DNA of 64,000 nucleotides, taken from contig OX597831.1 in assembly GCA_951406725.2 (NCBI GenBank), forward strand, positions 50,344,001 to 50,408,000. The letters run 5' to 3'. The position numbers and the translations under genes are program-made. The first letter of the stretch is position 1. Every line of letters starts with the position of its first letter. Origin of the DNA: Octopus vulgaris (lineage: Eukaryota). The notes beneath the pieces were generated by a model, which had not been told where the DNA came from, did no database searches, and saw nothing but the letters and a program-made list of their open reading frames with translations. Positions 6,292-53,609 of the stretch are shown piece after piece.

Positions 6292-6314
6292 CATAGCCTG
6301 GCAATTCTTTTCCT

Positions 6315-6344
6315 CTTGTTGTTGTTGTTGTTGTTCTTCTTCTT

Positions 6345-6432
<88 letters not shown>
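6315..6432. repeat. Compound trinucleotide microsatellite (TTG)n(TTC)n(TTA)n
   Basis: Directly visible; forms the tail of a Dong-type 3' end at 6433-6459. Confidence 0.95.
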
Positions 6433-6435
<3 letters not shown>

Positions 6436-24395: not shown

Positions 24396-24481
<86 letters not shown>

Positions 24482-25092: not shown

Positions 25093-28000
25093 TCATATGT
25101 TGTGGTGTGCGCTATTGCTCCATTCTAGTTTTCTATTCAGGCTAGGTTTATTTTCTATTATATGTGTAGCTTCTGTAATTTGTCTAATTGTTGCATCTGT
25201 TCTATGTGTGGACAATATCTTAATCTCTATGTTATTGATTGATCCCCCGTGTTCTTGTTCGGCGTGTTGGTACAGAATCGATGAGCTTTTACCTTCCTTG
25301 AGTTGTCTCCAATGTTCATTCACCCGCTCACCAATGCTTCTTGCAGTTTCCCTACGTATGTTACTGTCTTGTTACTGCATCGTCCCTCTATACATCTTAT
25401 ACTATAGACCACATTTCTGGCTTTACAGTTCGTTTGTGGGCTAAATCTACATACAGTGCAATAGTTTTCCGTACAGAGAGTTCTACTAAAAGGATAGGTT
25501 CTACCAATTATAGATCTGATAGGGTTGCCTGGCTTTTCAACAACCTTAATTCTTAGTTTAAGTTTATCTAGGGTCCTTCTAAAGCGGTACGCTAGTTCAC
25601 CTCCAGGGGTGGTGTCAACGAACATGACACTCTGGTATTTATGGCTATCATACCAAGAGTTGGCCTTCCTTATTTTCTTTTTTGTCCTTTCTATAGTGTT
25701 CCATGACTTGTTCCTATATAGTGGGCAAATCCCATTCCTATCATTACATAATATATTATCAAATTTCTTCATGGCTCCTTTGTATACTCTGATCCTTTCT
25801 TTATGGCTGTAACCTGAGAACTGCATGCGGTGAATGAAATACTGTATGTGTCTCTTTAATTCTGTAGGCTCGCACATGCGTGACACATTTCTCATTATTC
25901 TGACGAGGTCTGCCATCAAAATATTGAATTTGGCATTGCCCGCAATGGCTGAGTTCCGGTGGATCAGGTATTTTGAGGCCATAGGTTTTGCATAGTATGA
26001 ATGAAGGATTTGGGTTTTATTTTTCACAATTTCTAGCCAGAGTTCAGTGTCTAGTACTGGTAGTCTATGGTTGGGGTGTTTAGTGGGGTAGTCTATTGTG
26101 ACCTTAATACTCTGGTGGATGGAGTTAGCTATTTGCTGGATGCTCTCCATAGTATTAGTTTCTATTACTATATCAACAGTACTCTCTTGTGGGGGTGCCT
26201 TTACTACTATATTGGTATCATCAACATAGCGAGAGTACATGTTTACGAGTATGGATTTCTGCAGTAGGCATTCTTTAAGCCTTCTGTCCCACCATACCAT
26301 GAAGAGGTTGGCCACATCACCAGCGATACTAACACCGATGGCTGCCCCCTCGTCCTGGGCATATATTTTATTATTAAATTTAAATGTGTGGCCTTTTAGG
26401 GTAACTCTTATACTAGCTCCTAGTGCATGTGCGATCATTTTCTTTACCTGATGGACATTTGCGGGGCTCCGTATGGCTCTGGTCCATCCGCGCCATCTTT
26501 CTATATGTGTCTTCCTAGCCATAGAAGTAATTGTAGGCGGTCTACCTCTTAAACATCTACTGGGGCAGAAACTACTAAGATTATGTTTATCTAAGTATTC
26601 ACTATTATATGTCAGTCTAAGTAGGAGGCCCAGTTCTTCTGTGTCGACATTACAGAACTCCACCTGGCTCTCGTTGATCATCTCCACGCACTTCTCCACT
26701 GCAAAATCTACGTCAATCGATGGGTATAGGGATACCACATCCATGCTACCTACTATACATCCTGTCAAGTCACAAGTTTTGTTACAGTCACTGATCCTGC
26801 TTAGGAGATCTTCTGTGCTGTCACATACATCAGGTGACATCCTGATTATAGGGCGTATGATCATTGAGAGGAAGTAGGAGATTCTGTAATTGCTAGCGAT
26901 ATTCGCTCCACAGACTGGTCTTGTTGGTGGTCCTGCTATAGGGTCAGTAAAACCTTTATGGTCCTTGCGAAGTCCATACAGTGCCGGGATATCATTGTTC
27001 CAGGCTTGGAAATTCTTTGCAGTACGTTTCTGAGGTCCCAGAACAATTGTCCACATCATCATGTGGGCATTGAGGACCTTTTCTCTCTCCTCATGCGCCT
27101 GTACAGTTGTTACTTTTGTATTGGCGATATGAGGTTGCATTGCCTGGATGTAGTTCGGTAAGCTGTCTATTGACATCCTGCCGGACTTATCCGTGGGAAG
27201 GCATATCACCTCTCCGTTCCTCGTGCGCTGAATGAGCTTCTGTAGGCCACATGCAGGTTTAATCCCTAGTTGTTGGGCATCTGTCTTATTCTGTCTCTGT
27301 CTCTTAATGTATAAACCTAAAATCTGTCTAAGTTTGGTCCTAGCTATAGTGAACTGTGCTTCCATGTGGTCATTAGTACGTCTTGGGATGTATACCCTTT
27401 TGTTGAAGGGTAATGTTGTTGGATAAATTCGGTTCATGCAGTAAGTTTTGTCGCATACGTTGAAGAATTGAGTGTCAAAGGGATGGGTATACATGTCAAT
27501 GGTCTCTCTAGGGTTATCTTCATTATCGTTACTGTTTCCAACATCAGCCTTCCTATTATTATTATCACCATTACCACTACTACTACTACTAGTATTCCTA
27601 TTACCACCACAACTATCACTACTATCCTCATTACTACTTCTACTGTTACCATCACCACTACTACTACCACTATTATTGTTATTACCTTTATTCCTACCAT
27701 TGCCATTATTACTATCATCGCTAGTGATATATTCATTGTTCCTGTTTCTGGTATATGTGTTGTTTATATTAGTGTTGGGTTTTATGTCTGTCTGTTGGTC
27801 CCTGTCAATCCCCTTGTTGCGGTCGTTATTTTTGTTCCTATGAGTATTGTTATCTGTTTCAAGTCCGCTGACTCCCTGTCCAAGGATCCTGTTGCATTCA
27901 ACTTTATTCTCCATCGTGACCCCTATGACCCAACTTTTATTCGTGTTTTTGTGACTATGGCTATCTGTGTGTGTGTTTGTGTGTCGGTTCTCCCTATAAT

Positions 28001-29015
28001 TGTTGTTGTTGTTGCTGTTGTATACGATTTTTCTCTCTCTGTTTGTGTTTTTGTTTTTGTATCTATTGTTTGTGTCTATGCATACATTTTTTCTATTGTT
28101 ATTGTTGTTGTCGCTGTTAGGGTTCGTGTTGTTGTTGTTGTTGCCGCTGTTAGGGTTCGTGTTGCTTTTGTTGCTACGGTTGTTATTGTTGCGGTCATTA
28201 TTGTTTGTGTTGTTGTTGCTGCGGTTAGTGTTTTTCGCGTTGTTGTTGTTGTCGCAAGTGTTGTTGTCATAGTATCTATTTAAATTCCAACGTATTTTTG
28301 TGAACGACTTTTCAATCTCGGACAGGCATTTGATGGTATTCACTTTACTATACACTGCATACTTTGGTGGTAGTTGAAGTATCGATATTTCATCTGGGTC
28401 CGTTGTTACTCCCCCATAGATGTTCGCTTCATTGTCTTTATTGAACTCTTCTGGTAGTAGCACATCTTCCATAATAATTCCATTTATTGTATCTGGATAC
28501 TTCTGCTTTTCTTCCTTTGCGAGCTCATATTGACGTTTCTGTTTCAACCACGATAACTTCCTCTTAAAATGGATATTGCATTGGTGTATTACATGTCTGT
28601 TTTCTTCATATATTATATCCATTATTAAGGTTTTCTCCTTTCGTGTGGTGATACTTTTAATTTCTTTTAAAAATATACGTTTACGCTTCTCTTGTTCGCT
28701 CAGCTCTCTGTATATTCTATTTCTAATATTTACCATTAGCGTCCTTTTTAGTCTTTCCGCTTGTCCGTTAGTGAGGTCAAGCCGTTTAACGTTGGCTGTG
28801 ACCTTGTTGATACATATCCTGGACGAGACACATTGTTTTATAAAACGAAGCTGTTGCGTTGTCCCAGTTTTCTTTAGGCAACAAAATATAGTGTTCTTCA
28901 GCATCTTGCAAGCCTGGCTGTGGCTCACGTTAGTACGTTTAAATATTTGTTGTGCAAGATTTTTTATGTGAAGTCGTGTGTTGAAACAGATATTGTTATA
29001 TTTCGGAATGGTCAT
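25093..29015 (-). CDS. PLE-A polyprotein (N-terminal basic domain, Asn-rich insert, RT, thumb, Cys-rich linker, GIY-YIG), with a 1-nt frameshift near 25350
   Basis: 1231-aa ORF plus the 25093-25323 frame. RT motifs '[12 protein letters not shown]', '[20 protein letters not shown]', 'YSRYVDD', 'LPVLD'. Endonuclease 'VVYSIRC...YVG'. Confidence 0.9.
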
Positions 29016-29111
29016 ATTGCCAGTTTAGCCAATAAAAACACACGCACTATATATTTGGTGTTATTTTGCTTCAGTGATATTTATTTTTTACATTAATCTT
29101 AATCTTATTTC

Positions 29112-29156
29112 GGCCAAAGTTCTTTCGTCACACTCCTGTGACCGCATCAGTGGTCC
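29112..29156 (-). ncRNA. Hammerhead-like motif in PLE-A pseudo-LTR (non-canonical core)
   Basis: Reverse complement of 30729-30773. Confidence 0.5.
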
Positions 29157-29671
29157 TTTGTTTTCTTCTCACTTACTTGTGTCTCTCCTTACTAACCGTC
29201 AGCCATTTTGTATTTCTATTGTATGTCTTCATTTGCACATGCTTATATCTCTATGTGCGTCTATGTTTATTTAGTGTGTGTGTGGGGGGATGCCTGTAAT
29301 ATTTGTATCTTCTGGTTATATACATTCTTGTAATTTGTATTTTGTTTTTGTTGTTGTTGCTTTTGTTCTAATTTTGTTCATGTGTTTACATCCACCCATT
29401 ATTATCATTACATATGCTTGTATGTATGTATAACAACAATATTAGTAATAATAATAATAAATCTAATCTAGAAAAAAAAAAAAAAAGGATATACATATAC
29501 ATATATATATATATACATACATATACATATACATATATATATATATACATATATACACACATATATACACATATACATATACATATATATACACATATAC
29601 ATATATATAGATATTCATTTCTATTTCTTTAATTACCTGTGTATTTATTATGTTTGCAGGATCCACTATTG

Positions 29672-30464
29672 TCATATGTTGTGGTGTGCGCTATTGCTCC
29701 ATTCTAGTTTTCTATTCAGGCTAGGTTTATTTTCTATTATATGTGTAGCTTCTGTAATTTGTCTAATTGTTGCATCTGTTCTATGTGTGGACAATATCTT
29801 AATCTCTATGTTATTGATTGATCCCCCGTGTTCTTGTTCGGCGTGTTGGTACAGAATCGATGAGCTTTTACCTTCCTTGAGTTGTCTCCAATGTTCATTC
29901 ACCCGCTCACCAATGCTTCTTGCAGTTTCCCCTACGTATGTTACTGTCTTGTTACTGCATCGTCCCTCTATACATCTTATACTATAGACCACATTTCTGG
30001 CTTTACAGTTCGTTTGTGGGCTAAATCTACATACAGTGCAATAGTTTTCCGTACAGAGAGTTCTACTAAAAGGATAGGTTCTACCAATTATAGATCTGAT
30101 AGGGTTGCCTGGCTTTTCAACAACCTTAATTCTTAGTTTAAGTTTATCTAGGGTCCTTCTAAAGCGGTACGCTAGTTCACCTCCAGGGGTGGTGTCAACG
30201 AACATGACACTCTGGTATTTATGGCTATCATACCAAGAGTTGGCCTTCCTTATTTTCTTTTTTGTCCTTTCTATAGTGTTCCATGACTTGTTCCTATATA
30301 GTGGGCAAATCCCATTCCTATCATTACATAATATATTATCAAATTTCTTCATGGCTCCTTTGTATACTCTGATCCTTTCTTTATGGCTGTAACCTGAGAA
30401 CTGCATGCGGTGAATGAAATACTGTATGTGTCTCTTTAATTCTGTAGGCTCGCACATGCGTGAC
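29672..30464 (-). pseudogene. 5'-truncated third PLE-A copy: thumb end plus intact GIY-YIG C-terminus
   Basis: Reads uninterrupted 'NVVYSIRC...[16 protein letters not shown]...[10 protein letters not shown]...[17 protein letters not shown]' to the stop codon. Confidence 0.9.
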
Positions 30465-30728
30465 CCAAATCCTTCATTCATACTATGCAAAACCTATGGC
30501 CTCAAAATACCTGATCCACCGGAACTCAGCCATTGCGGGCAATGCCAAATTCAATATTTTGATGGCAGACCTCGTCAGAATAATGAGAAATGTGTCACGC
30601 ATGTGCGAGCCTAAATAAACATAGACGCACATAGAGATATAAGCATGTGCAAATGAAGACATACAATAGAAATACAAAATGGCTGACGGTTAGTAAGGAG
30701 AGACACAAGTAAGTGAGAAGAAAACAAA

Positions 30729-30773
30729 GGACCACTGATGCGGTCACAGGAGTGTGACGAAAGAACTTTGGCC
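30729..30773 (+). ncRNA. Hammerhead-like motif in PLE-A pseudo-LTR (non-canonical core)
   Basis: GG-A-CCA CUGAUGC G GUCACA[GGAG]UGUGAC GAAA GAAC UU UGGCC. Type I layout with C at position 9, one extra G and a minimal stem III. AATAAA follows at 30800-30805. Confidence 0.5.
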
Positions 30774-30869
30774 GAAATAAGATTAAGATTAATGTAAAAA
30801 ATAAATATCACTGAAGCAAAATAACACCAAATATATAGTGCGTGTGTTTTTATTGGCTAAACTGGCAAT

Positions 30870-33800
30870 ATGACCATTCCGAAATATAACAATATCTGTT
30901 TCAACACACGACTTCACATAAAAAATCTTGCACAACAAATATTTAAACGTACTAACGTGAGCCACAGCCAGGCTTGCAAGATGCTGAAGAACACTATATT
31001 TTGTTGCCTAAAGAAAACTGGGACAACGCAACAGCTTCGTTTTATAAAACAATGTGTCTCGTCCAGGATATGTATCAACAAGGTCACAGCCAACGTTAAA
31101 CGGCTTGACCTCACTAACGGACAAGCGGAAAGACTAAAAAGGACGCTAATGGTAAATATTAGAAATAGAATATACAGAGAGCTGAGCGAACAAGAGAAGC
31201 GTAAACGTATATTTTTAAAAGAAATTAAAAGTATCACCACACGAAAGGAGAAAACCTTAATAATGGATATAATATATGAAGAAAACAGACATGTAATACA
31301 CCAATGCAATATCCATTTTAAGAGGAAGTTATCGTGGTTGAAACAGAAACGTCAATATGAGCTCGCAAAGGAAGAAAAGCAGAAGTATCCAGATACAATA
31401 AATGGAATTATTATGGAAGATGTGCTACTACCAGAAGAGTTCAATAAAGACAATGAAGCGAACATCTATGGGGGAGTAACAACGGACCCAGATGAAATAT
31501 CGATACTTCAACTACCACCAAAGTATGCAGTGTATAGTAAAGTGAATACCATCAAATGCCTGTCCGAGATTGAAAAGTCGTTCACAAAAATACGTTGGAA
31601 TTTAAATAGATACTATGACAACAACACTTGCGACAACAACAACAACGCGAAAAACACTAACCGCAGCAACAACAACACAAACAATAATGACCGCAACAAT
31701 AACAACCGTAGCAACAAAAGCAACACGAACCCTAACAGCGGCAACAACAACAACAACACGAACCCTAACAGCGACAACAACAATAACAATAGAAAAAATG
31801 TATGCATAGACACAAACAATAGATACAAAAACAAAAACACAAACAGAGAGAGAAAAATCGTATACAACAGCAACAACAACAACAATTATAGGGAGAACCG
31901 ACACACAAACACACACACAGATAGCCATAGTCACAAAAACACGAATAAAAGTTGGGTCATAGGGGTCACGATGGAGAATAAAGTTGAATGCAACAGGATC
32001 CTTGGACAGGGAGTCAGCGGACTTGAAACAGATAACAATACTCATAGGAACAAAAATAACGACCGCAACAAGGGGATTGACAGGGACCAACAGACAGACA
32101 TAAAACCCAACACTAATATAAACAACACATATACCAGAAACAGGAACAATGAATATATCACTAGCGATGATAGTAATAATGGCAATGGTAGGAATAAAGG
32201 TAATAACAATAATAGTGGTAGTAGTAGTGGTGATGGTAACAGTAGAAGTAGTAATGAGGATAGTAGTGATAGTTGTGGTGGTAATAGGAATACTAGTAGT
32301 AGTAGTAGTGGTAATGGTGATAATAATAATAGGAAGGCTGATGTTGGAAACAGTAACGATAATGAAGATAACCCTAGAGAGACCATTGACATGTATACCC
32401 ATCCCTTTGACACTCAATTCTTCAACGTATGCGACAAAACTTACTGCATGAACCGAATTTATCCAACAACATTACCCTTCAACAAAAGGGTATACATCCC
32501 AAGACGTACTAATGACCACATGGAAGCACAGTTCACTATAGCTAGGACCAAACTTAGACAGATTTTAGGTTTATACATTAAGAGACAGAGACAGAATAAG
32601 ACAGATGCCCAACAACTAGGGATTAAACCTGCATGTGGCCTACAGAAGCTCATTCAGCGCACGAGGAACGGAGAGGTGATATGCCTTCCCACGGATAAGT
32701 CCGGCAGGATGTCAATAGACAGCTTACCGAACTACATCCAGGCAATGCAACCTCATATCGCCAATACAAAAGTAACAACTGTACAGGCGCATGAGGAGAG
32801 AGAAAAGGTCCTCAATGCCCACATGATGATGTGGACAATTGTTCTGGGACCTCAGAAACGTACTGCAAAGAATTTCCAAGCCTGGAACAATGATATCCCG
32901 GCACTGTATGGACTTCGCAAGGACCATAAAGGTTTTACTGACCCTATAGCAGGACCACCAACAAGACCAGTCTGTGGAGCGAATATCGCTAGCAATTACA
33001 GAATCTCCTACTTCCTCTCAATGATCATACGCCCTATAATCAGGATGTCACCTGATGTATGTGACAGCACAGAAGATCTCCTAAGCAGGATCAGTGACTG
33101 TAACAAAACTTGTGACTTGACAGGATGTATAGTAGGTAGCATGGATGTGGTATCCCTATACCCATCGATTGACGTAGATTTTGCAGTGGAGAAGTGCGTG
33201 GAGATGATCAACGAGAGCCAGGTGGAGTTCTGTAATGTCGACACAGAAGAACTGGGCCTCCTACTTAGACTGACATATAATAGTGAATACTTAGATAAAC
33301 ATAATCTTAGTAGTTTCTGCCCCAGTAGATGTTTAAGAGGTAGACCGCCTACAATTACTTCTATGGCTAGGAAGACACATATAGAAAGATGGCGCGGATG
33401 GACCAGAGCCATACGGAGCCCCGCAAATGTCCATCAGGTAAAGAAAATGATCGCACATGCACTAGGAGCTAGTATAAGAGTTACCCTAAAAGGCCACACA
33501 TTTAAATTTAATAATAAAATATATGCCCAGGACGAGGGGGCAGCCATCGGTGTTAGTATCGCTGGTGATGTGGCCAACCTCTTCATGGTATGGTGGGACA
33601 GAAGGCTTAAAGAATGCCTACTGCAGAAATCCATACTCGTAAACATGTACTCTCGCTATGTTGATGATATCAATATAGTAGTAAAGGCACCCCCACAAGA
33701 GAGTACTGTTGATATAGTAATAGAAACTAATACTATGGAGAGCATCCAGCAAATAGCTAACTCCATCCACCAGTGTATTAAGGTCACAATAGACTACCCC

Positions 33801-34792
33801 ACTAAACACCCCAACCATAGACTACCAGGACTAGACACTGAACTCTGGCTAGAAATTGTGAAAAGTAAAACCCAAATCCTTCATTCATACTATGCAAAAC
33901 CTATGGCCTCAAAATACCTGATCCACCGGAACTCAGCCATTGCGGGCAATGCCAAATTCAATATTTTGATGGCAGACCTCGTCAGAATAATGAGAAATGT
34001 GTCACGCATGTGCGAGCCTACAGAATTAAAGAGACACATACAGTATTTCATTCACCGCATGCAGTTCTCAGGTTACAGCCATAAAGAAAGGATCAGAGTA
34101 TACAAAGGAGCCATGAAGAAATTTGATAATATATTATGTAATGATAGGAATGGGATTTGCCCACTATATAGGAACAAGTCATGGAACACTATAGAAAGGA
34201 CAAAAAAGAAAATAAGGAAGGCCAACTCTTGGTATGATAGCCATAAATACCAGAGTGTCATGTTCGTTGACACCACCCCTGGAGGTGAACTAGCGTACCG
34301 CTTTAGAAGGACCCTAGATAAACTTAAACTAAGAATTAAGGTTGTTGAAAAGCCAGGCAACCCTATCAGATCTATAATTGGTAGAACCTATCCTTTTAGT
34401 AGAACTCTCTGTACGGAAAACTATTGCACTGTATGTAGATTTAGCCCACAAACGAACTGTAAAGCCAGAAATGTGGTCTATAGTATAAGATGTATAGAGG
34501 GACGATGCAGTAACAAGACAGTAACATACGTAGGGGAAACTGCAAGAAGCATTGGTGAGCGGGTGAATGAACATTGGAGACAACTCAAGGAAGGTAAAAG
34601 CTCATCATTCTGTACCAACACGCCGAACAAGAACACGGGGGATCAATCAATAACATAGAGATTAAGATATTGTCCACACATAGAACAGATGCAACAATTA
34701 GACAAATTACAGAAGCTACACATATAATAGAAAATAAACCTAGCCTGAATAGAAAACTAGAATGGAGCAATAGCGCACACCACAACATATGA
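30870..34792 (+). CDS. PLE-A polyprotein, second full-length copy, with a 1-nt frameshift near 34606
   Basis: 1262-aa ORF; YVDD at 33657-33668; GIY-YIG 'VVYSIRC...[16 protein letters not shown]'. One G is missing relative to the other copies (ctcatc-attc), and the consensus stop TGA is at 34790-34792. Confidence 0.9.
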
Positions 34793-35187
34793 CAATAGTG
34801 GATCCTGCAAACATAATAAATACACAGGTAATTAAAGAAATAGAAATGAATATCTATATATATGTATATGTGTATATATATGTATATGTATATGTGTATA
34901 TATGTGTGTATATATGTATATATATATATATGTATATGTATATGTATGTATATATATATATATGTATATGTATATTCTTTTTTTTTTTTTCTCGATTAGA
35001 TTTATTATTATTATTACTAATATTGTTGTTATACATACATACAAGCATATGTAATGATAATAATGGGTGGATGTAAACACATGAACAAAATTAGAACAAA
35101 AGCAACAACAACAAAAACAAAATACAAATTACAAGAATGTATATAACCAGAAGATACAAATATTACAGGCATCCCCCCACACACACA

Positions 35188-35465
35188 CTAAATAAACATA
35201 GACGCACATAGAGATATAAGCATGTGCAAATGAAGACATACAATAGAAATACAAAATGGCTGACGGTTAGTAAGGAGAGACACAAGTAAGTGAGAAGAAA
35301 ACAAAGGACCACTGATGCGGTCACAGGAGTGTGACGAAAGAACTTTGGCCGAAATAAGATTAAGATTAATGTAAAAAATAAATATCACTGAAGCAAAATA
35401 ACACCAAATATATAGTGCGTGTGTTTTTATTGGCTAAACTGGCAATATGACCATTCCGAAATATG

Positions 35466-35473
<8 letters not shown>
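35188..35473 (+). repeat. Right-terminal pseudo-LTR of PLE-A (direct repeat of 30611-30895), with hammerhead-like motif at 35306-35350
   Basis: Identical at offset 4577. It runs through the ORF start codon (ATGACCATTCCGAAATAT) and ends in (TA)n. Confidence 0.9.
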
Positions 35474-35543
<70 letters not shown>

Positions 35544-37589: not shown

Positions 37590-38190
37590 AATTGATGCCG
37601 AGCAATTGTTAATCAACACAACTGTGATGTGAATGGTAAGAGAGCATAGGACGAACCTAGTTTCAATGTGGCTTGACTACAAGAAAGTTTTTGACTCTAT
37701 TCCGCACTCATGGATGCTAGAAGCCCTTCACCTTGCTAAAGTTTCAGTGAGCATACTCAAAACCATAGCTAACCTGACTTCATAGTGGGCCACCATCCTG
37801 AAATGAAGCACAAAGAGTGACTATATTATCACTGATAGAATACAGTATCGCAAAGGCATATTTCAAGCCTTTCTGTGATGTTGCTTATACTTATCATTTA
37901 TGTTAAGAAAGAATGAAGGAAATCTCACTGGTGCATTAGCAAACAGGAATACCAAAGTTACACACTATTTTTTTGTGAGTAACTTGAAACTTTATGCAAT
38001 GAATATGCACGAGATGAAAAAGAGCCTTGACCTAGTTACATACTGAAAGGATGTAGGTTGGATTTGGGTCAGGGAAATGTTATCATATGTTTGTGAAAAA
38101 GGGGAAAACTGTAAACCAGACTAGCAACATCTCCATCAATGACTTGACTATTTTCCCTATATCTGACGAAGAATGTTACATATATCTATT
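37590..38190 (+). mobile_element. Old Dong/R4-like RT remnant
   Basis: Peptide 'NLVSMWLDYKKVFDSIPHSWMLEAL...QYRKGIFQ' with stops. Confidence 0.7.
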
Positions 38191-38806
38191 GGTGGATTAA
38201 AACTAGGACCTAGGTTTCAAACTCTTCAAGATATGCTTGTTAACGTAAACTTGATTAGCTCTCATCAGCTAGATTTACCAGAGCAAAATTTCAAATGTTG
38301 GCACGTTAAATCCAGTATACTCGCTTGAACGCAAAGCCGCTAACAGAAACGAGAACAGTGAAAAAGTTTAAAATATTGCAATACAAAATATTGATTTGCA
38401 GTAAAATAAAACACCGTACGGTTAAAGTATAAATATGAATATAGAATGAGGGAACAACAGTGCACCGACATTTACTGGAAATAGCAGTAACTATCAATGA
38501 GATGTACCTAAGAGAGGCAACTCTGAACGAACTTAATAAAGTCGTAGCTTTATATATCATTCAGTCAATACGTTGACTTATTTGCGCTAGTAGATCGCCT
38601 GATCGAGATAAACAACGAAGTGTTAGCGCGAAGCAGCGTTTAGGTATGAGCAGAATTTAGTCTAGTTGAAATATATCTGTCACATATTTCAACTGATAAA
38701 GGACAAATACACTGCACTTACCGTGGAGAAAAAATTTCTGAATGAACTGAGTGTTTTCACACCATTTTGCCACAAGAGAAACGTTTTCTCCACGTTAATT
38801 GCAGTG

Positions 38807-38954: not shown

Positions 38955-40037
38955 TATACACGCGCGAAACATATTCGAATGCGTAACCCGTAATGTGTAC
39001 TTCAATGTGCATAATCCACACAGTGTATGTTGGGCATTTTCAGTGCAATTTTATTTAAAATTATAGTTGGCATCCATGTGTGAATTTAATTAATTCAATT
39101 CAAGCTCCTGGTTAAGTTGAAGAGTTGTATTTTTCAGATTTCTCTATAACTGTTTCTTGTTTTTTTTTATTTAGTTTTTTGGTCTCTTTTTATCAAATTT
39201 GTTTATTGTTCAATAACTTTATCAATCTCTCGTACTTGCATGACGTTTTATGGGTTGATTAAAGAGGCTGAAACAGAAATTGGTATTATTGTACACACAC
39301 ACACACACACAGACATATATATTCTTTTACTCGTTTCAGTCATTTGACTGCAGCCATGCTGAAGCACCTCCTATATATATATATATATGTATATATATGT
39401 GTGTGTATGCAGATATATAGACAGAAGGATGGATAGGTACACTGATAAACAGAGGTAGATAGATTGATATAGATAAATATAAACATGCATGCGTTTATAG
39501 TATCTACACTCACACACACCCTTACACATATATATATATATATAAATATATAATGAAGGAATTTTTAATAAAGATTATTACAATGTGGCTCTTAGGAATG
39601 CTGGTTATAAATATCAACTTAAGTACACCAAATTTAAGCTCAAAAGACCATCACGAATTGGAACAACCTAGCACACAACGTAACACAATGAAGTATATTT
39701 GTAAAGTTAACTTCACCATAAAAAAGAAGAAAATTTTAAAAATCTGGACCAAATAACAAGACTTTTACTAACCAGATTTCTACCAATACCAATATTTCTA
39801 ATAAGATAAACAATTGTAATGTCACAGGCAGTCATTACGAGAAAAACATTAGCATAGCCGGGAATAGTAACACGAAGCTAAGTCTTTTCACAAAAAATCT
39901 TATCTTATTTCATCACATAATCTTAATTCCCCACACAACTACATAACCAACTTTAATGATGTCCAGTATTTTCTTAATAACAACAACAACAACAACAACA
40001 ACAACAATAATAATAATAATAATAAAAATCATAATAA

Positions 40038-40574
40038 TAATAATAATCATAATAATAAGTGGCTCTCATGGCTTCTGATCTTAACTGATTGGAAGTGTTA
40101 TCGTGTACATTGTTTTGTCTTGGTATAAAAGATGGGCTACAGCAAATATTCTGCTCAATACCACAGATTTGCTTGTCAGTTGTTTGACCTTCAGTTGAGC
40201 ATGTCCCTTAGTGGCTGACGATATGTGCATCTCTGATCACGAGCAGAAGTAGTGGGGGAGCATCATAGCCATGTGTTGAGAGGGATTCTTTGGGGTTTGA
40301 ATAATTCACCTCTGGAAACATGGGTGGTTCTTTCAACATCCTTAAACAAACCTTATTCAGGGACCTTTTGAGCGGGATGGACTACCCAACCTGAAGAAAA
40401 TTCTAACTGGGCCCCACCTGCAAGGTCATGTACTGTTTATCTTGATATGAGATCACCATGCGTGCACATATGGTTGTGATGCATGTGCCTGGTGTACCCT
40501 TATCAGACGGGTATATTGGGCTTCGTATATTTTACCCCAGCGTCACTTTGATGGCATGAACTGCTCTCTCACTC
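40038..40574 (+). repeat. ~540-bp interspersed repeat with (AAT)n on both sides (SINE-like or LINE 3' fragment)
   Basis: Second partial copy at 5981-6291. Followed by (AAT)n at 40575-40626. No ORF recognised. Confidence 0.65.
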
Positions 40575-40626
<52 letters not shown>

Positions 40627-43600
40627 GGACGTACCCCACAACCGGAATATTCCAACAGATGGCCATCCATGCTCATCACCAAATAATCAAAAGAAAAAGA
40701 AGGAAAAATGGTCTAGGGAAGATAATAAAGAAGTTCTTGAGGCCTTCTACCATGCCATATATTTCCCCACAGATAAGTCTAGCACTGTACAAGCATACTT
40801 AAACTGGAGACAGAAACACCCTGAAGTAAGACCCTACATAGACAGTAACAAGCTTGCCAATGTTAGAAGAAACATTATAAAAAAGAAATTACTGACTGAG
40901 GTAGAGATTGATCAGGTTAGACAAGCAATATCGGATAAAATGAACGAAGCTGCAGCTAGAGAAGATAATACAGAGGAAATGATTATAGACCAGCCCAGGG
41001 CGGATAAAAACGAAGAGAGGATTGAAAGAGTTAGTATAAGTGATAGGCAAAGTGAAATACTCCCTGAACCAATCATAAACACTAAGACAGATGAGCATCA
41101 AATAGATAAAGAAAGTCACACAAATATTGACCCAACAGAACTACATGAGCTAAAAAATCAAATCATGATTGAATGGCTGAAAATTAAAGAAACCAGCATG
41201 GATGAGCGTGATACACTTCCTAAAATCCGCAACTCTAACCAAAACATGAAAATAATTGGTAAAATCCGGCTTGCACTTAAGGATATAATTTCAGTTAATG
41301 ATGTTGATATCACAAACCTCAACCACCTATACTATGCATCCGCGAAAATCTCAACGATCCTATGTGGTGTAAAGATTAGAAACGGCAACAGTCCCACAAA
41401 AAGCCTCCTTGGCAAGAGCGTCTGCAACAACAAATTAAAATATTTAGATCTGACATTGAATATTTGAAAAACCTTAAGGCTCACAAAACTACCAAACCTA
41501 CAAAAACCCAAAAATTACTGAAAAAATACAATATGAAAACTATACTTGATATTGATGCCACCATAGAAACCATCAAACAAAAGGTATCTGCCAAAGCTGC
41601 CCGCATAGCGAGGTATGAAAAGCGTGTTAGATTTTTCAAGGACAACAACATGTTCAAAAATAACACCAAGAATTTTTACAGGAAGATAGGAAAAACAGCG
41701 TTTACTGCAGGGTCTGTACCATCAAAAGAAGAAGTGCAGAGATTTTGGAATAAAATCTGGGCAGAAGAAAAAACACACAACGAAAAGGCCCCCTGGATTG
41801 ACAGAATATCTACAGAACTGGACCCCTTAGAAGAGCAAAAGTGGGAGGGTGTCAAGGTAGAAGATATAAGATCTGCTCTCAGGAGGTCAAGCAAATGGAA
41901 GTCTCCAGGAAAGGATAAAATTCCTAACTTCTGGCTGAATGCCTTCCCAGAGAGCCATGAACTGCTAACAGAACTGTACAATGATGTTTTGCAACACCCT
42001 AGTAGGATGCCTCCTTGGCTAGTTAATGGGTTAACATTCCTGCTTCCAAAAAGTGAAGAAACAAATGAACCAAAAAACTATAGACCCATAACCTGCTTAA
42101 CAACTATGTACAAAACACTAACATCTGTCCTGACAGAATATACCTGTAGTTTTTTAACAGACAGCAGCATATTCCCTAATGAACAGAAACGATGTAAACG
42201 TGGATCCTACGGCTGTAAAGACCAACTACTCATCAATAAGATGATCTTAGAAGATTGTCACAAACTACACAAAAACTTATCAATAGCCTGGATAGACTAT
42301 AAAAAAGCTTTTGATAGCCTACCACATAGCTGGATTAGGAAATGCCTTGAAATGTATAAGATAGCATCAACTCTGCGAAACTTCTTGACTGTAAGTATGA
42401 GATCATGGAGAACCACACTAACTCTGAACAGTGACAGTGAATCCCTAAATGCTGGTGATGTAAAAATTCCGTGTGGCATTTTCCAGGGTGACTCACTGTC
42501 ACCACTCCTCTTTTGTTTATCGTTAATACCTCTCTCAAAGCTGCTCGATGACGCGCAGTACGGGTATAAAATGTTTGATAAAAATATAAATCATCTCGTT
42601 TACATGGATGATTTAAAGCTTTTTGCAAAAAATGATCAACAACTCAAGGGCTTACTAGCGATAGTCAAACAATTCAGTGACGACATCAGAATGCAATTCG
42701 GCCTCGATAAATGTGCAAAGGCTACCTTTATCAAAGGAAAAATGACAGAAACATCTAACGTTAACCTTGACCAACAGAATGTCATAAAAGAACTAGACCC
42801 AGCGGAGAGCTACAAGTACCTAGGGGTAATTGAAGGGAACGGAATAAGGCATTCAGAGATGAAGGAAAGGATCAGGAGAGAATGCTATCGAAGAGTGAGA
42901 GCAATACTCAAGACAGAGCTGAATGCAAGAAACAGGATCGAAGCGATCAATGCATTAGCTATACCAGTCGTGACTTACAGTTTCAATATTGTTAACTGGT
43001 CAATTACTGAAATATGTCAGCTCGACAGAAAAATAAGGAAACTGTTGACAATGCATAGAATGCACCACCCTAAGGCAGATACAGAACGACTCTATCTGCC
43101 AAGAAAAGAGGGAGGCCGTGGTCTTTTGCAACTGGCAATAACAATGAAGATTGCTACAATTGGCCTAGACACCTACCTGAAAAACTCTGCGGACTGGATG
43201 TTAAAACTTGTCTCAAAACATGAAAACAAGAAAGCACCATACTCAGTCACAAAACAAGCAAATGAATATCTAAGTGAATTCCGAATACAACCAATTTCGG
43301 AATTAGAGATAGATATACAAGAAACAAGCACAGAAAAAGCTAGGCGCATGAAAACCCGTGCCAAAACTGCGGCCTTAGATATTCTGAATAATAAATGGTA
43401 AGAAAAACCTCTCTATGGCAAATACCCTACCCAAAGAGAGCGAATAATGCAGATATCGACAAAGCCCTGACCCATCAATGGCTAATGGCCTCTGGCTTAA
43501 AATCTGAAACAGAGGGGTTTATCATAGCAGCTCAAGATCAATGCCTACCAACAAGAAACTACCAGGCCAACATATTAAAGATCAGAAGCAGTCCAACGTG

Positions 43601-44371
43601 TCGTGTATGCAAGCAACAAAATGAAACCTTGACCATGTGGTCTCCAAGTGCAGTCTCCTAGCGCCTACAGAGTATCTCAACAGGCACGATAGAGCTGCAC
43701 AATATATTCACTGGGTAATCTGTAAAAACCTGGATTTGCCCCATGAAAAAAACTGGTGGGAACACAAACCACCCCCAGTGCTTGAAAATGACCACATCTC
43801 ACTCCTCTGGAACTTCACCATTCAAACTGAGAGGAAGATAGATGCAAATAGGCCAGACATCATATTGAAAGACTTCAAACAAAGAACATGCCTCCTCATT
43901 GATATGACTGTTCCAATCGATATATACGTATCTGTCAAGACCTACTAAAAACTGAGCAAATATAAAGATCTTGAAATAGAAATCAGCAAAATGTGGAAGC
44001 TGAAGACTAAAACAATACCTGTTGTCATAGGTGCCCTGGGAATGATAGCAAAAGGGCTGATAGCTACCTAACTCAGATACCAGGAAACCCAAAAATGGCA
44101 AAAGTTCAAAAGATAGTGCTCATGGGAACTGCTCATATCCTACGCAAAATACTCTCTATGTAATCTCAAGGTTTAAAACAAACATAATTTTCGGTTTAAA
44201 AAAAAAAAAAAAATTTTTTTTTAGACATTCATTAGTACAACATCCCCACCCCCCAAATATATGGCACACTAGGCATAACAACAACATGAACTTCCAACCC
44301 TGTTGTCTCTTGAGGTCTCTGGGTGAGACTTGGAGCCAACTTGTACAAATATAAAGCAAAAGTCAAACATA

Positions 44372-44372
<1 letters not shown>
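40627..44372 (+). mobile_element. Near-complete Dong/R4-clade non-LTR retrotransposon with a few frameshifts/stops, flanked by (AAT)n
   Basis: N-terminal 'KWSREDNKEVLEAFY', RT (41464-43401), CCHC 'CRVCKQQNETL(DHVVSKC)', 'YLNRHD', restriction-like endonuclease 'RPDIIL..LIDMTVP..K..KY'. (AAT)n at 40575-40626 and 44373-44408. Confidence 0.9.
41464..43401 (+). pseudogene. Reverse transcriptase domain of the Dong/R4-like LINE
   Basis: 'WKSPGKDKIPNFWL', 'NYRPITCL', 'WIDYKKAFDSLPHSW', 'GIFQGDSLSPLLF', 'HLVYMDDLKLFA', 'FGLDKCA', 'YKYLG'. Confidence 0.9.
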
Positions 44373-44409
<37 letters not shown>

Positions 44410-45944
44410 TTAATAAGAATAATATTAATAAGAACAATAAGAATAAGAATAGCAATGTTAGTGATTGTGTTAATTCGAGAGGTAAAAAGAAATCTATACC
44501 TATTATTCGAATGGGTGACCCGTCTAACAAAAACCACCATATCAATAAGAAACACAATAACATAATTTAGATATTTCCTTTTGCTAAACATTTGAAGTCT
44601 AATTTTATAAAGTCTATTCGTTTTATTATTAACTAAAATTTTAGTAAATCTAGCTATGCTGGAATATTCAATAACAGAATGATTAGATTTGGCTTTCCTG
44701 CTTCTCCTAACTTATTTAGGATTATGACTTCCTTTAACAATAGAAATCTAAATATTTACTACAAGAATTTTACCTCCTCTACTTCTTATACCAACCCTAA
44801 TTATTCAAATAACTCTGTATCTTCTACCAACGATTCCCATAGTCACACAAACTCTTCTTCTATCAACAAATGTACACATAACAATAGTATGTCTAATATT
44901 AGTAACAACTGAGACTGTAGAAGCCCAAAAACCTGTGAGGTTAAAGGTAATTGTAAAATGAAAAATGTTGTATATAAAGCTACTATTACAATACATGATC
45001 TTTCTGGGTTTCATTATATAGGTTGCACGCAGAACCCTCTTAAATTACGTTTGAATAATCATGAATCATCTTTCAATGATCCTCGAAAAGAAAGTAGTAC
45101 TAGTTTATCCAAAAAGGTATGGCAACTTAAAAGGGACAACATAATTTTCTCAATTTCTTGAAATATTGTTTCTTCTGCCCCCTCTTATAGGATTAGAAAT
45201 AGAACGTGCTTTTATGACTTGAAGAATCTTATATAATTATGAAAACGAACGGTTCTATCTTAAATTCGAGAGATAAAAGTGTTTTGTAAACATATGTTCA
45301 AATTTATTTTTGTTAACGTTAAATAGTCTTATTGATTACCTCTTTTTCATTTTCCTATTAGTTCTTATTACACTCTTAGGTTATGTCTATAAAAGGTTTT
45401 TCTCAGTGTGTGCATGTATGCATGTGTGCCTTTGTGAGCATGTTTATGCAACTGTTCTCATGTTTTTATATGTATATGTATGTCTATATGTGCAGTAAAC
45501 TATAACATAAAAATAAGAATAAAAATCTAACGGATATGTTTTAGAAAATGGCAACAGGTCGCGGTTATGTATAATGTAAACAGGACCACGTATGCATAGT
45601 AGAATATAACGTAATAGGTATGCTATATGTGCATATAAAAGCATACATACACATAAAAATACACACACATATATATATACATATGTATATATATGCAAAT
45701 ACATATACATACACACATATACATATAGAGACACACATACACATACATATATAGATATACATGAATATAAAATGATAATTGAAATGTCTGTCTGTTTTCT
45801 CTTTCGTGCTATTTTTCCCTTTTACATCTTCCTTGTAAATATCCGATTTTCCCTATTAACGCTTTTGTATTCTCCATTATTGTATTTTATTTTAATTTAA
45901 TTTATTTTATTAAACCTTTGTTTCATGTCTTTTCAAAAATCTTC

Positions 45945-46015
45945 ACACTGATGAGAATGGCAATGCATAATTTTTTTCTTATATATTTTTATTGTCCTTT
46001 GAAATGCGCGTATGT
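45945..46015 (+). ncRNA. Minimal type I hammerhead ribozyme (canonical core) in the PLE-B 3' region
   Basis: ACA CUGAUGA (45948-54), stem II GAA..GGCAAU/AUUGUC.UUU, GAAA (46001-04), U[GCGC]G, UA, UGU. Predicted cleavage after GUA at 46012, followed by AATAAA. Confidence 0.75.
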
Positions 46016-46143
46016 AATAAATCCAAAGTTGTATTAAATCGAATTTTGATGCAACATCTTTTTCTCCTGCATTTGTATATAATTGTTTATGGTATATTTA
46101 TACCTATAACGATATTTTCAACATGTACATATATACATATGTA

Positions 46144-46188
<45 letters not shown>

Positions 46189-46196
46189 ATATAAAG

Positions 46197-46233
<37 letters not shown>

Positions 46234-46271
46234 AATACAAACATATATATACATATATATATATATACATG

Positions 46272-46325
<54 letters not shown>

Positions 46326-46346
46326 CATACATACATATATATATAT

Positions 46347-46392
<46 letters not shown>

Positions 46393-46566
46393 TAAATATT
46401 AGGGAATAAATCCAAATTTACAGGGAAAAAATCAGATTTAGGATTAAATCCAATTTTATAGTAAAATATTATAAAATATTATTAGAGACAAAACCACTAT
46501 TTTGCAAAACAAACAAGGAAAGACTTAATCAATACATAAAATTTTAATAAATAGTCAAAAAAACCG

Positions 46567-49824: not shown

Positions 49825-50199
49825 TATTAGAGACAAAATATATATATGGAAAATAAGACAATTTAGAAATGCTAATATAATTTTATCGTGAAGAGCATTT
49901 TAGAAGCAGTTTCAATCTTTGCAACTTTTTCAACTTAGAGGAAAACATGAAAAGCAATTAAATTGGGGAAAAATTAGATGAAATGTTTATTTTCTAAAAC
50001 AACGCCATAGTTTCAAATAGGTGGGACATTTTCCTTTCTCTCTCTCTCTCTCTTTCTCTCTCGCATACTTTTGTGAAATCTCAGTAGCTAGTTAGTAGCA
50101 GATTTGAAGAAATATGTAATATGAGAGATGCTGGTTCTGGATTTCGATTGTTTAAGCAGCATTATCCCCATCCAAGAACCCGTAACATAAATCAAAATT

Positions 50200-52710
50200 A
50201 CAGGGCACTCCACAACAACAGGGAACAACTACATAACAGATACCATCCCAATCACCTCAATAATTTTTTTAGACCCATTACGCAAATACAGTGATACCAG
50301 ATAGCACCAGATATACAGGATAAATCAAAAGTCATCATTCTAACATACAAAGAACTGACACTGAACCAAATCAACATACACTCCAAAGGGTCATTCACTC
50401 GCGTAAATTGTTTTTGGTTTGGCCTATGTGTTGCTCTCAATATCCGGAGCAAGTTAACACATATTAGGCTTTCCGTTGGCCTTGTTTGAAAGAGAACTCC
50501 GATCCCTCAATTAGCTCGACACATATACCACAGTTAGGTTTTCCGCAAGTACACACGTCAACCCACCCCAACGCCCCATCTACAACGAAATGAAAGAAGA
50601 CGTTGTGGAAGTCTGTAGAAAATTACGCCTCACCGAGGAACTATACGACAAATACGAGTACGAATCGTTAGCCCGAATTAGAAGTAACTACAGCAGTTCA
50701 AAAGGTAAGAACACATTTCTTGACTATTTTTTTGAACACCTCACGAATTACCCATGTCAACACATGCACAAATAAAAACACAAACCAAACTTCGGCAAAA
50801 GAAGACTGGACTGAGCCGAAGAGATTAAAGGATGATAAAACTATAACAACCAAAGAGACTGATAAAGGTCGTGCAGTTGTCCTAAGGGACACAGTATACT
50901 GTGTAACTCTAGTACTCTCCATATTCGAAGATACAACGTATTACGATAAGATGCAACACTACAGTCAGCAGAAAATAATGAAAAACCTAAAGACTATGTT
51001 AAACCTATACAGAGAAGAGCTCGCCGACAAAGAATACGACTATATGATTAACTTCAAAAGTAAATCCAATCAATTCTACGGTATTCCCAAGATACACAAA
51101 AGTGAGAAAATAAGTAACGCATGCGGGTGAGCCATAGATATAATAACATAATAGTCAAGGTACCTACTCCTAATGAAGTCAAATTAAGACGTATAATTAT
51201 AGGTCCCGCGTGCAAAACCCACCACCTCAGTAACGTTTTAGATACTCTCTTAAAACCATTTCTCAGACATATCAAAAGCTACAATAGGGACGACTTAGAT
51301 ATGCTCAATCACCTCCACGAAACAATGAATAAAACACCCTACTAGTATCCATCGATGTAGTCAAACTCTATTCTAATATCCTGCAGAGCGTAGGAATAGA
51401 GACAATCTAATTCTGGTTAGAGAATTACTCCAACGAACTCCCACACCGCATCAAAAAAGAATTCGTAATAGCAGAGATAATTTTCATCATGGAGTATAAC
51501 TTCTTCGTCTTCAAAGACAACTTCTATCGACAAAAATTGGGGCCTGCGACGGGTACGAGAATGGCCGCTTTTGCTAACCTAGTCATGGGATATGTAGAAA
51601 TCAGTCTTTATCGTAAGGTACTAGAAAAATACGGCAACCCATTCTTTCTCTACATAGAGAATAACTGGAAGTAGTACCTGGATAACTGCTTCAAACTTTG
51701 CCATGAAAGTATGGAGAGACATAAAGTATTTCAAACACTTTTAAACGGACTTGACATAAAAATTCAATTTAAGATAGAATATAGCCATCAACTTCCATTC
51801 CTCGACATCCTTAATAAGAAATCCAGTAACAAGATAAAAACAGACATATACTATAAGCCAATGGACTCCACACAATAGCCACCATTAAACTCATCCTACC
51901 CCAGACACACTAGAACGAATATCTCCTTCAACCTAGCAACAAGGTTTGTACTATAGTTCCTAATACAAGAACCAGGGACACACGACTACATGAACTAAAG
52001 GATACACTCATCAACAGGAACTACCCACCATCACTACCTGATATAGGCTTTCAACGTGCCCTACATATCAACATCCACGAACTCAGAGATCCCAATCTAA
52101 AGAAGGATTTACAACCAAAAGCCCAACTATACATCACACACAACCCCCTTAATAATAAAACATTCGCCTCCATCCTCAAGAACATTCCTTTACTAAAATG
52201 TGTCCACAGAATGAATCTAATCCTCCAGACGCACACTATCATAAACAGCAAAAGACTACTCAAGTTAATGAAAAGTCTTCTGAAACAAGCCCAAGTGTAC
52301 ACGTCAACAACACTAAAACTGTCAGTAAAAAAAATGCGGAAAACCTAACTGTGGTATGTGTCGAACTATTTGAGGGATCGGAGTTCTCCTTCAAACAAGG
52401 CCAACAGAAAGCCTAATATGTGTTAACTTGCTCAGTGTGTCGAGAGCAATACATAAGCCAAGCCAAAAACAATCTACGCGAATGAATGACCCTACATAGA
52501 TCCCAGATTAAAATTCAGGAATACAGAAAAATAGCATTTAGTCAACACACCGACATTTGCGCCACTAACGAACAACCTAACTTAAGAATTTTTCCCCTCT
52601 ATAAATTCAAGGACAATCCAACCTATAATCACCGCATTAGCAAAGAGTCATATTTTATCGCAAAATATAAACCCATTCTACCACAAATGACATTAATGCA
52701 AGGGTCTTAG
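50200..52710 (+). mobile_element. Decayed near-full-length PLE-C (RT + GIY-YIG)
   Basis: 'KETDKGRAVV', 'FYGIPKIHK', 'LVSIDVVKLYSNI', 'NFFVFKDNFYRQKLGPATGTRMA..FANLVMG', 'LPFLDIL', 'KTDIYYKP', 'QYISQAK...MTLHRSQI...ESYFIAKYKPIL'. Many frameshifts. Confidence 0.85.
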
Positions 52711-53609
52711 AATAATACCTATGCTAATATTAAAAACAATATATTCAGAACAGTCACTACCCATGAATTTATTCGGGACAATTCCAATCTCTACTGCTAT
52801 AACCACAACAGGTCAATTTTAGGTCACTTGACCATTTAAGAATAGTCTACGAACAGTCTACTACTGTCATACCTTTGCCCTCTTTTCCTCCTCCTTCTTC
52901 TTCTTCTTCTTCTTCTTCTTCTTCTTCTTCTTCGTCTCCTTTTTCTACTTCTTCTTTTCCTTCCTCTTTATTTTCTTCTTTGCCAGACAGCTACTGTTGC
53001 TTAAGCAATCAAAATCCAGAACCGACATCCAACATATCAAATATTTCTTCAGATCTGCTACTACCTACCTATCGAGCCTTCAAAAATGTAATTATATCGC
53101 AATATTAGCGCTGGTCTCCTTCTCTGTAAAAAGATATTAAAATGTCTCTACTGTTATGTGAAGAAGTGTGACCTGGTGATTAGGTTGTGGTGCTCACAAT
53201 CTTATAGTGATGTATTTGAAATTTAGACAGGGTTACGAGCTGTATCTTTCAAAAAGGCACTTTATTACATGTTGTCCCTGTCGACTCAGCCGAAAGTTCG
53301 CACGAAACTCTCTCCCCCCAACTGCGAAGGATGAAATGTCTTAGCTTGCTTACGACTATATGGGTACTTAAAAGATCCAGCAAAATTATGATATATGCTA
53401 CCAGATTAGTGAGGCTAGAGTTTCTTGGTCTCTTCTTACATGTAAAAGGTAAATGAGGTGAGATACAGTCAACATCGTAAATAAAACATTCTCTCTTTAA
53501 TTGGCGAATAACTAGTTTGTGCAACACATATATATTTTGATGAACGTTTTATAACTCAGTTCATTTTATTTATTATATATAAAAATAAATAATTAAATAT
53601 ATATATATA

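Follow-up and report, generated by a model that had tools for sequence, protein, structure and literature searches.

A degenerate Penelope-like element of Octopus vulgaris split within an Asn-rich stretch by an R4/Dong-type LINE

The window analyzed here is a 64-kb stretch of the Octopus vulgaris genome (64,000 nucleotides of contig OX597831.1). On its sequence features, the element at the center of this study, hereafter PLE-B, is a dead, 5'-truncated Penelope-like element (PLE) with Hydra-clade features, lying between (TA)n tracts and interrupted by a high-copy repeat and a LINE (Table 1). A preliminary description of this DNA had the nesting right, and its coordinates, reading frames and repeat length needed correction; the inserted repeat, given there as 540 bp, measures 515 bp (40060–40574).

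Table 1. Features of the PLE-B locus and of the elements inserted in it (positions are those of the window).
Feature	Position	Strand	Basis or remarks
Outer (TA)n tract where the 5' end of PLE-B is truncated	39528..39551	none	Sequence; likely insertion target
PLE-B RT thumb C-terminal motif, F-N-x-x-Y-x-x-A-L-x-x-x-G-Y-x-x-x-L-x-Y type	39552..39632	+	Profile; copy begins here
PLE-B expanded Asn/Thr/Ser-rich spacer, left part	39633..39975	+	Frameshifted in this copy
Left half of the (AAC/AAT)n run	39976..40059	+	28 codons, 24 Asn
Very high-copy non-coding repeat, unclassified, followed by (AAT)n	40060..40574	+ (inferred from AAT side)	515 bp
(AAT)17 separating the 515-bp repeat from the LINE	40575..40625	+	
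R4/Dong-type LINE, near full length	40627..44372 (start approximate)	+	Pfam, relatives
Right half of the run: (AAT)12, then decaying into AAT/AAG/ATT codons	44373..44453	+	20 of 27 codons Asn
PLE-B spacer remainder: degenerate W/F-N-P-P region and second Asn/Ser-rich stretch	44454..44909	+	
PLE-B CxCx5C-type linker and GIY-YIG endonuclease	44910..45330	+	Relatives and profile; several stops
PLE-B 3' UTR, broken by AT/AC microsatellite	45331..46128	+	3' end approximate
(TA)n tract 3' of PLE-B	46129..46399	none	

The GIY-YIG endonuclease of PLE-B has 2230 relatives at E ≤ 0.001 and a profile match at E 8.4e-38. In translation, Cys is absent from the stretch separating the GIY and YIG halves of its core, which lacks a CCHH motif. 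The CxCx5C motif of the linker occurs in 102 of 150 relatives; in PLE-B a stop codon (TGA) stands in place of the first Cys and the spacing is kept. The right-hand frame carries stops at 44568, 44634, and 44910, all upstream of the endonuclease. Motifs RW[KRQ] and DK[TS], found in all four full-length relatives, belong to the RT N-terminus, a region missing from this truncated copy. A motif scan found hammerhead-core-like words in the 3' UTR (45948–46005), where a hammerhead fold is unsupported (z +1.3) and an Rfam search returned no hammerhead match.

The two pieces flanking the insertions, 39552–40059 and 44373 to about 46120, are collinear halves of one PLE. A thumb profile built solely from right-piece relatives (21 sequences) matches the left piece at E 2.2e-6, a collinearity beyond chance and the sole significant match among 432 six-frame chunks of the window; these 21 relatives were picked by a motif already noticed in the left piece, and an unselected 45-protein profile scored the left thumb motif at a mere 4.6 bits (E 0.32). 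Both flanks are also low-copy in four of four public sequencing runs, as is the left spacer (39633–39975), and the right/left depth ratio of 2.4–3.0 is what 5' truncation predicts. Contiguity of the halves is thus argued for by collinearity and depth, and the assignment of both pieces to one PLE family is borne out; word-indexed protein searches, whose silence is weak evidence, found no close PLE-B family members spanning the tract. That the pieces come from different copies or families, joined by chance or by recombination across repeats, is scarcely credible. Two points do speak for it: no contig of the four runs bridges the insertion among the joints listed (15 of 1235, rows at repeats excluded), in itself a neutral result, and the Asn-rich spacer between thumb and linker, at about 220 codons against 29–58 aa in the 21 relatives, exceeds theirs four- to sevenfold. 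Against it, the pieces share strand, correct motif order, and matching low depth, no conserved block is missing, nothing overlaps, and (TA)n stands at both outer ends.

Within the spacer, the left half of the run consists of AAT, nine AAC, and AAT, with AAA/CAT interruptions, and the (AAT)12 beginning at 44373 is in frame with the Cys linker and the GIY-YIG domain. NFNDVQYFL (39949–39975) leads straight into the left run in a frame that is open from 39871 on only. The thumb motif is read in a different frame, so that at least two shifts of frame are required across the left piece. One frame of the left spacer encodes 17 Asn, the other two 4 and 7, and the longest open stretch is 68 codons, not beyond shuffles; open-frame lengths across the spacer are likewise not beyond chance, 123 and 104 of 1000 shuffles doing as well. 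Excision of 40038–44372, as proposed in the preliminary description, lands in an Ile frame, whereas removal of 40039–44372 or 40060–44372 keeps the Asn frame. A frame kept after excision was rejected as evidence, since any in-phase join of two AAT runs gives it.

The pure run may never have coded poly-Asn in an active element: slippage and insertion tails could have grown it from a few AAY codons after the death of this copy, a reading we regard as rather unlikely. In its favor, the frame entering the run is open for 35 codons only and differs from the thumb frame; a one-base difference at 39891 that links two of the frames is present in three of four runs, yet at about 9–13% of depth; one contig, from a single run among the four, differs by one base at 44503, which would shift the run out of the endonuclease frame; and a mixed (AAT)(AAG)(AAC) array without a PLE exists at 6305–6433. 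Weighing against it, the run sits in the endonuclease frame on the right (chance one in three), grades on both sides into Asn-rich mixed codons (the spacer outside the pure run is 18–24% Asn), and is accompanied by a second Asn-rich stretch in the same frame (within 44454–44909, 28% Asn across 60 codons). Moreover, N-rich inserts are known to arise at short (AAY)n motifs (PMC3846280). Slippage after death would be compatible with the explanation of the nesting given below, and it weakens the word 'coding'.

The inserted LINE is laid out as an N-terminal region, reverse transcriptase (RT), CCHC knuckle, restriction-like endonuclease, and 3' UTR. Its RT matches Pfam RVT_1 (E 1.2e-26) and was likewise confirmed with the ESM Atlas. 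This copy is disabled by four frameshifts and two in-frame stops, and is collinear across five frames with single-ORF relatives of about 1150 aa; in run contigs, other copies of the LINE differ at its frameshift sites. Among 34 long relatives, CCHC is found in all and the [RK]PD motif in 33; an N-terminal zinc finger is found in none, nor in the 5' ORF of the LINE in the window, unlike R2. With (AAT)17 at the 5' junction and (AAT)12 at the 3' junction, the element is flanked by (TAA)n on both sides. Domains, collinear relatives, and junctions agree with an R4/Dong-type LINE with AAT at either side, as had been proposed; among the 120 matches listed, none is named Dong or R4. The N-terminal region (40628–41464) gave no Pfam match for a diverged Myb/SANT-like domain, whose published detection needed HHpred. 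A crude descriptor gave no match for a 5' HDV-like ribozyme, and the copy is probably 5'-truncated.

The 515-bp repeat has the highest depth in all four runs, and a second partial copy, 84% identical, lies at 6293–5993. It matches no Rfam family at gathering score, with merely low-complexity miRNA matches below that score. Searches for Pol III boxes, a match to the HDV-like descriptor, and a 3' end shared with the LINE found none of these, which leaves the label 'Dong-derived SINE' unsupported.

The LINE may have landed in the AAT tail of an earlier 515-bp insertion, or both may have been inserted together through a template switch, so that the PLE run was hit once; we hold this possible but lean against it. 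The 5' junction of the LINE adjoins the pure (AAT)17 downstream of the repeat rather than the mixed AAC/AAT run of the PLE, and LINE and repeat are also neighbors, in opposite order, across an AAT array at 6.3–6.5 kb. Conversely, the repeat and the LINE have no sequence similarity beyond that of shuffles, and whichever order is assumed, AAT ends up at either side once a triplet-repeat target is duplicated, so the junctions are uninformative on insertion order. Either variant is compatible with the preferred explanation and alters the order only.

AAT arrays also occur in the window outside PLE-B, where we counted five merged (AAT)5+ arrays in 64 kb, about one per 13 kb. One of the five (6375–6431), 34 kb away and without a PLE profile match, is joined by a 30-bp stub 90% like the LINE 3' end, abutting it at 6462–6375, and by a 310-bp piece of the 515-bp repeat. 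In summed contig depth across four public runs, the LINE 3' part reaches 639–782 times the highest PLE-B bin and the 515-bp repeat 4152–5074 times, with 30–70 times for the LINE 5' part, all rough figures: summed contig depth is not copy number, and short overlapping contigs likely inflate high-copy families. In single-locus depth units, PLE-B stands at roughly 10–45 and the LINE at thousands to tens of thousands, in counts limited to sequences at least 85% alike, which exclude any further PLE families bearing Asn runs.

One further family in the window, PLE-A (two copies), has an ORF-keeping Asn-rich segment of the Adineta type: an uninterrupted 261-aa insert with 85 Asn codons and an open ORF. 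It is AAC-biased, its longest pure AAT run being three units. Among 150 protein relatives, an Asn run of four occurs in two and none is longer, in what is a biased sample of intact called proteins.

The preliminary description had proposed that Asn expansions of PLE proteins create and spread specific targets for a LINE. What stands of this is that an R4/Dong-type LINE with AAT on both flanks interrupts a single PLE within an Asn-rich stretch; the nesting is real and the proposed parasitism system is unsupported. That Asn-rich expansions of PLE ORFs form a meaningful mobile source of targets in a specific parasitism of one transposon on another is very improbable. For it, both insertions sit in what is the sole pure AAT/AAC run found within a PLE here, truncated copies of a PLE are able to move such runs into fresh (TA)n sites, and transposons are a known target class of sequence-specific non-LTR elements (PMC4640811). 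Against it, the target is generic (AAT)n, and host arrays of it occur at about one per 13 kb here; PLE-B is orders of magnitude rarer than the inserts on the rough depths above; the same inserts occur in the PLE-free array at 6.3–6.5 kb; the Asn insert of PLE-A, lacking a long AAT run, is unhit; and long Asn runs are rare among the protein relatives. The host copy, moreover, lacks an RT core, so it was presumably dead before the LINE arrived. A still broader idea seems to us highly improbable, namely that Asn-rich spacers expand independently in several PLE clades unrelated to one another and that those maturing into pure AAT runs are preferred mobile pads for the LINE and its passenger repeat, the LINE both profiting from and capping poly-Asn expansion. 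Were enrichment in PLE-borne runs shown genome-wide, the coding sequence of one retroelement would be building targets for another.

Ordinary nesting explains the locus very probably: the LINE would have landed in the PLE-B run as a seeker of any (AAT)n, not of Penelope elements. Set between (TA)n tracts, the two flanks represent, in collinear order, a single kind of PLE; the spacer of this family would have gained about 190 low-complexity codons, like the N-rich inserts of rotifer Penelopes. One truncated copy without the RT core may then have brought the run to its present site, where the LINE endonuclease, following established Dong biology, would have cut (TAA)n and primed reverse transcription, leaving AAT on both sides. 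The 515-bp repeat may have come by the same or a similar route, and all three elements have decayed since. At this single locus, the PLE-B copy probably supplied the AAT site. Two insertions lie in the one PLE tract examined (n = 1), an outcome that enrichment would also give.

Tx1 is an example of a non-LTR element that specifically targets another transposon. Such elements form a listed class (PMC4640811), which the present case resembles in that one transposon lies inside another; it differs in that the target here is a generic microsatellite common outside the host element, (AAT)n, rather than a sequence peculiar to it. In most insects, molluscs, and cnidarians, the target of Dong is (TAA)n (PMC7998251), and Octopus bimaculoides is reported to have a Dong family whose ORF is complete (R4/Dong sources: PMC7998251, PMC3812793, PMC3774820, PMC9115989). 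Our LINE agrees with R4/Dong elements as described in these sources in its single ORF, RT, CCHC knuckle, and restriction-like endonuclease, in having no N-terminal zinc finger, and in (TAA)n at both sides; the likeness is one of domains and junctions, and this copy differs in being disabled and probably without its 5' UTR.

(TA)n serves as the insertion site of Hydra-clade PLEs (PMC8557442, section 11). PLE-B shares with them a C-terminal GIY-YIG domain without the CCHH Cys pair, a CxCx5C-type linker, the same thumb motif, and (TA)n flanks (39528–39551, 46129–46399), and differs by some 190 extra low-complexity codons in the spacer from thumb to linker (PMC8557442). It is not Hydra-1_Obim, which is 2507 bp long with different thumb and hammerhead sequences, and three short PLE-B motifs have no match in the supplement of that article, where long runs are shown in part (PMC8557442).

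In the rotifer Adineta vaga, Pen2a, Pen3, and Pen4 carry N-rich inserts of 460–554 aa with 25–30% Asn, the ORF often being intact, and Pen2a is itself inserted in an N-rich Penelope segment, described by the authors as an attractive target (PMC3846280). The notion of such a segment as a target had thus already been raised, for another Penelope; the preliminary description had presented its parasitism of one transposon on another as not recognizably described before. Dong targeting of (TAA)n, Asn-rich PLE inserts, and the insert as a target (for another Penelope) are all published. PLE-B resembles the Adineta vaga inserts in its long Asn-rich segment between RT and endonuclease, tied to (AAY)n motifs (PMC3846280); it is shorter, with a pure run, a Hydra-type host, and a frameshifted frame, and the element inserted in it is an RLE-type LINE rather than another Penelope. 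In the available portion of PMC8557442 we found no prior report of Asn-rich inserts in the Hydra clade. Asn-rich ORF inserts, known from rotifer Penelopes, appear in this octopus in two PLE families unrelated to each other, PLE-A with open ORFs and the Hydra-type PLE-B.

The three-element nest in a dead, truncated Hydra-type Penelope-like element (PLE), hereafter PLE-B, is real and cleanly readable. The layout given in the preliminary description (PLE, repeat, AAT, LINE, PLE) is borne out by the sequence with small corrections: the inserted repeat is present but measures 515 bp rather than 540 bp, and the tract resumes in the frame of the Cys linker and GIY-YIG domain, but stops at 44568, 44634 and 44910 interrupt that frame before the endonuclease. 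On the left, open reading in the NFNDVQYFL frame begins only at 39871. Excising 40038–44372 in silico, as first proposed, results in an Ile frame, and a left cut at 40039 or 40060 gives the Asn frame, which is no evidence because in-phase joining of any AAT runs yields the same.

Features of the nest and of other elements in the window
Feature	Position	Strand	Remark
NFNDVQYFL	39949-39975	+	continues into AAC/AAT run
Left AAC/AAT run, 28 codons	ends 40059	+	
515-bp repeat	40060-40574	+	
(AAT)17	40575-40625	+	between repeat and LINE
LINE	~40627-44372	+	
(AAT)12, decaying to mixed Asn-rich codons	from 44373	+	in frame of Cys linker and GIY-YIG domain
Second, diverged R4/Dong-like LINE	9365-5640	minus	
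Mariner ORF	7482-8237		Transposase_1/HTH_48; within second LINE
PLE-A inverted pair	24435-35513		97.8% identical over 4.9 kb
Part of PLE-A (~1.5 kb)	28990-30467		duplicated once more
Decayed non-LTR RT fragment	37600-38197	+	
Two short inverted matches	50066-50547, 52335-53090		80-90% identical, ~2-3 kb apart

The linker of PLE-B is of the CxCx5C type (motif in 102 of the 150 relatives listed), its first Cys being a stop in this copy; the GIY-YIG core has no internal Cys, (TA)n borders both outer ends, and RW[KRQ] and DK[TS] occur in all four full-length relatives. Such a linker, a Cys-free core, (TA)n flanks and motifs of these two types are Hydra-clade marks in the available text of PMC8557442. 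The accessible part of its supplement holds Hydra-1_Obim (2507 bp, (TA)n), whose thumb motif is of the same kind as that of PLE-B but differs in sequence, and three short PLE-B terms had no match there. The copy begins within the thumb and the RT core is missing; it would therefore be unable to move by itself. Hammerhead core words lie at 45948–46005, where a hammerhead fold is unsupported.

Collinearity, rather than sight of another copy, suggests that the halves of PLE-B are contiguous. The right piece has 2230 relatives at E≤0.001, 150 of which are listed; 21 of the 150 carry both a thumb motif and a downstream W/Y-F/Y-x-P-P motif, 29–58 aa apart, and PLE-B has the same two ~220 codons apart, inserts excluded (39588–40059 plus 44373–44567). 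A thumb-block profile of the 21, chosen by a motif pattern previously spotted in the left piece, matches 39552–39632 (E 2.2e-6), directly after the (TA)n tract, as the sole significant match among 432 six-frame chunks of the window; against a profile of 45 relatives of at least 240 aa, taken without that motif selection, the same stretch scores only 4.6 bits (E 0.32). Both pieces have low, similar contig depth in four public sequencing runs (right/left 2.4–3.0), and no contig bridging the tract is among the 15 of 1235 joints listed, rows at repeats excluded.

PLE-B likely has an Asn-rich spacer; active elements of the family may or may not have encoded a long, pure stretch of poly-Asn. One frame of the left piece holds 17 Asn, versus 4 and 7 in the other two, and its 68-codon open stretch is equalled in 123 of 1000 shuffles, as is the 38-codon stretch on the right in 104 of 1000. 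Among the indel rows listed, 12 of 44, a one-base difference at 39891 joins two left frames (three of four runs, ~9–13% of depth), and another at 44503, in one contig of one run, would put the run out of frame; all four runs have differing sequence somewhere between 39637 and 39745. A second Asn/Ser-rich stretch (44733–44912) directly precedes the Cys linker, and since one relative (P0017, 51% identical) is Asn-rich at the matching place, this part may predate the PLE-B family.

The LINE contains Pfam RVT_1 and follows proteins of ~1150 aa, each encoded by a single ORF, in collinear order over five frames, that is, with four frameshifts, plus two in-frame stops. Among 34 relatives of at least 1050 aa, all have a CCHC knuckle, 33 the [RK]PD endonuclease motif and none an N-terminal C2H2 finger. 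With (AAT)n at both ends, these domains fit the R4/Dong type, consistent with the label first applied; none of the 120 matches listed is named Dong or R4. According to the text available, (TAA)n is the insertion site of R4/Dong elements in the majority of insects, molluscs and cnidarians (PMC7998251; PMC3812793), a Dong family is on record in Octopus bimaculoides (PMC9115989), and a Dong 5' ribozyme adjoins TAA repeats (PMC3774820). In the four runs no part of the window is deeper than the unclassified 515-bp repeat, in which scans found neither Pol III boxes nor a match to an Rfam family, and which is not similar to the LINE.

Elsewhere, the second LINE ends abruptly at ~6462, where 30 bp of the nested LINE's 3' end stand as a stub. 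Beyond the stub lie (AAT)19(AAG)n(AAC)n and a piece of the 515-bp repeat 310 bp long; past this piece are weak endonuclease-like traces (5904–5640, E>1). PLE-A, an unrelated Penelope-like family, forms a young pair between (TA)n tracts, with ORFs of 1234 and 1265 codons encoding DKSG, YVDD, a Cx4CxxC linker and GIY-YIG, and a 261-aa Asn-rich insert N-terminal of the RT core.

The preliminary description took the Asn tract of the PLE for a special landing pad for the LINE, a reading opposed by abundance, AAT supply, a control locus and PLE-A. In all four runs, the LINE 5' part, the LINE 3' part and the 515-bp repeat reach 30–70, 639–782 and 4152–5074 times the summed depth of the highest PLE-B bin, where summed depth is not copy number and holds to order of magnitude only. 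Scaled units are ~8–44 for PLE-B, ~1,500–30,000 for the LINE and >100,000 for the repeat, based on residual depth of the window's own letters in runs X1, X2 and X4 (11, 10 and 6 hand-picked rows of 40 listed, zero and large residuals dropped); the large figures are likely inflated by overlapping short contigs, relatives <85% alike are missed, and, in favor of a landing pad, PLE-B is the one PLE family counted. PLE-B aside, the 64 kb contain five merged (AAT)5+ arrays, and at one (6375–6431, minus), with no PLE match, the stub, 90% like the LINE 3' end, is followed by the array and the repeat piece. The PLE-A insert, with 29 AAT and 56 AAC codons and at most 3 AAT units in succession, has no insertion. 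Against these lines, the sole pure run inside a PLE in the window took two; judged from one locus, insertions may be enriched in PLE-borne runs. Most likely the nest is an ordinary outcome, in which a very common AAT-seeking LINE would have met one more AAT run, here in a dead Hydra-type PLE.

Searches of an open-access library, where the original Dong papers appear only as references, brought up no report of a Dong element inserted in the Asn tract of a PLE. In the accessible portions of the sources, the targets of sequence-specific non-LTR elements include transposons and microsatellites (PMC4640811), and rotifer Penelopes have N-rich ORF inserts linked to short (AAY)n motifs, a Pen2a insertion into an N-rich segment being read as a sign of an attractive target (PMC3846280); the PLE-A insert site differs from the rotifer insert places given in that portion.
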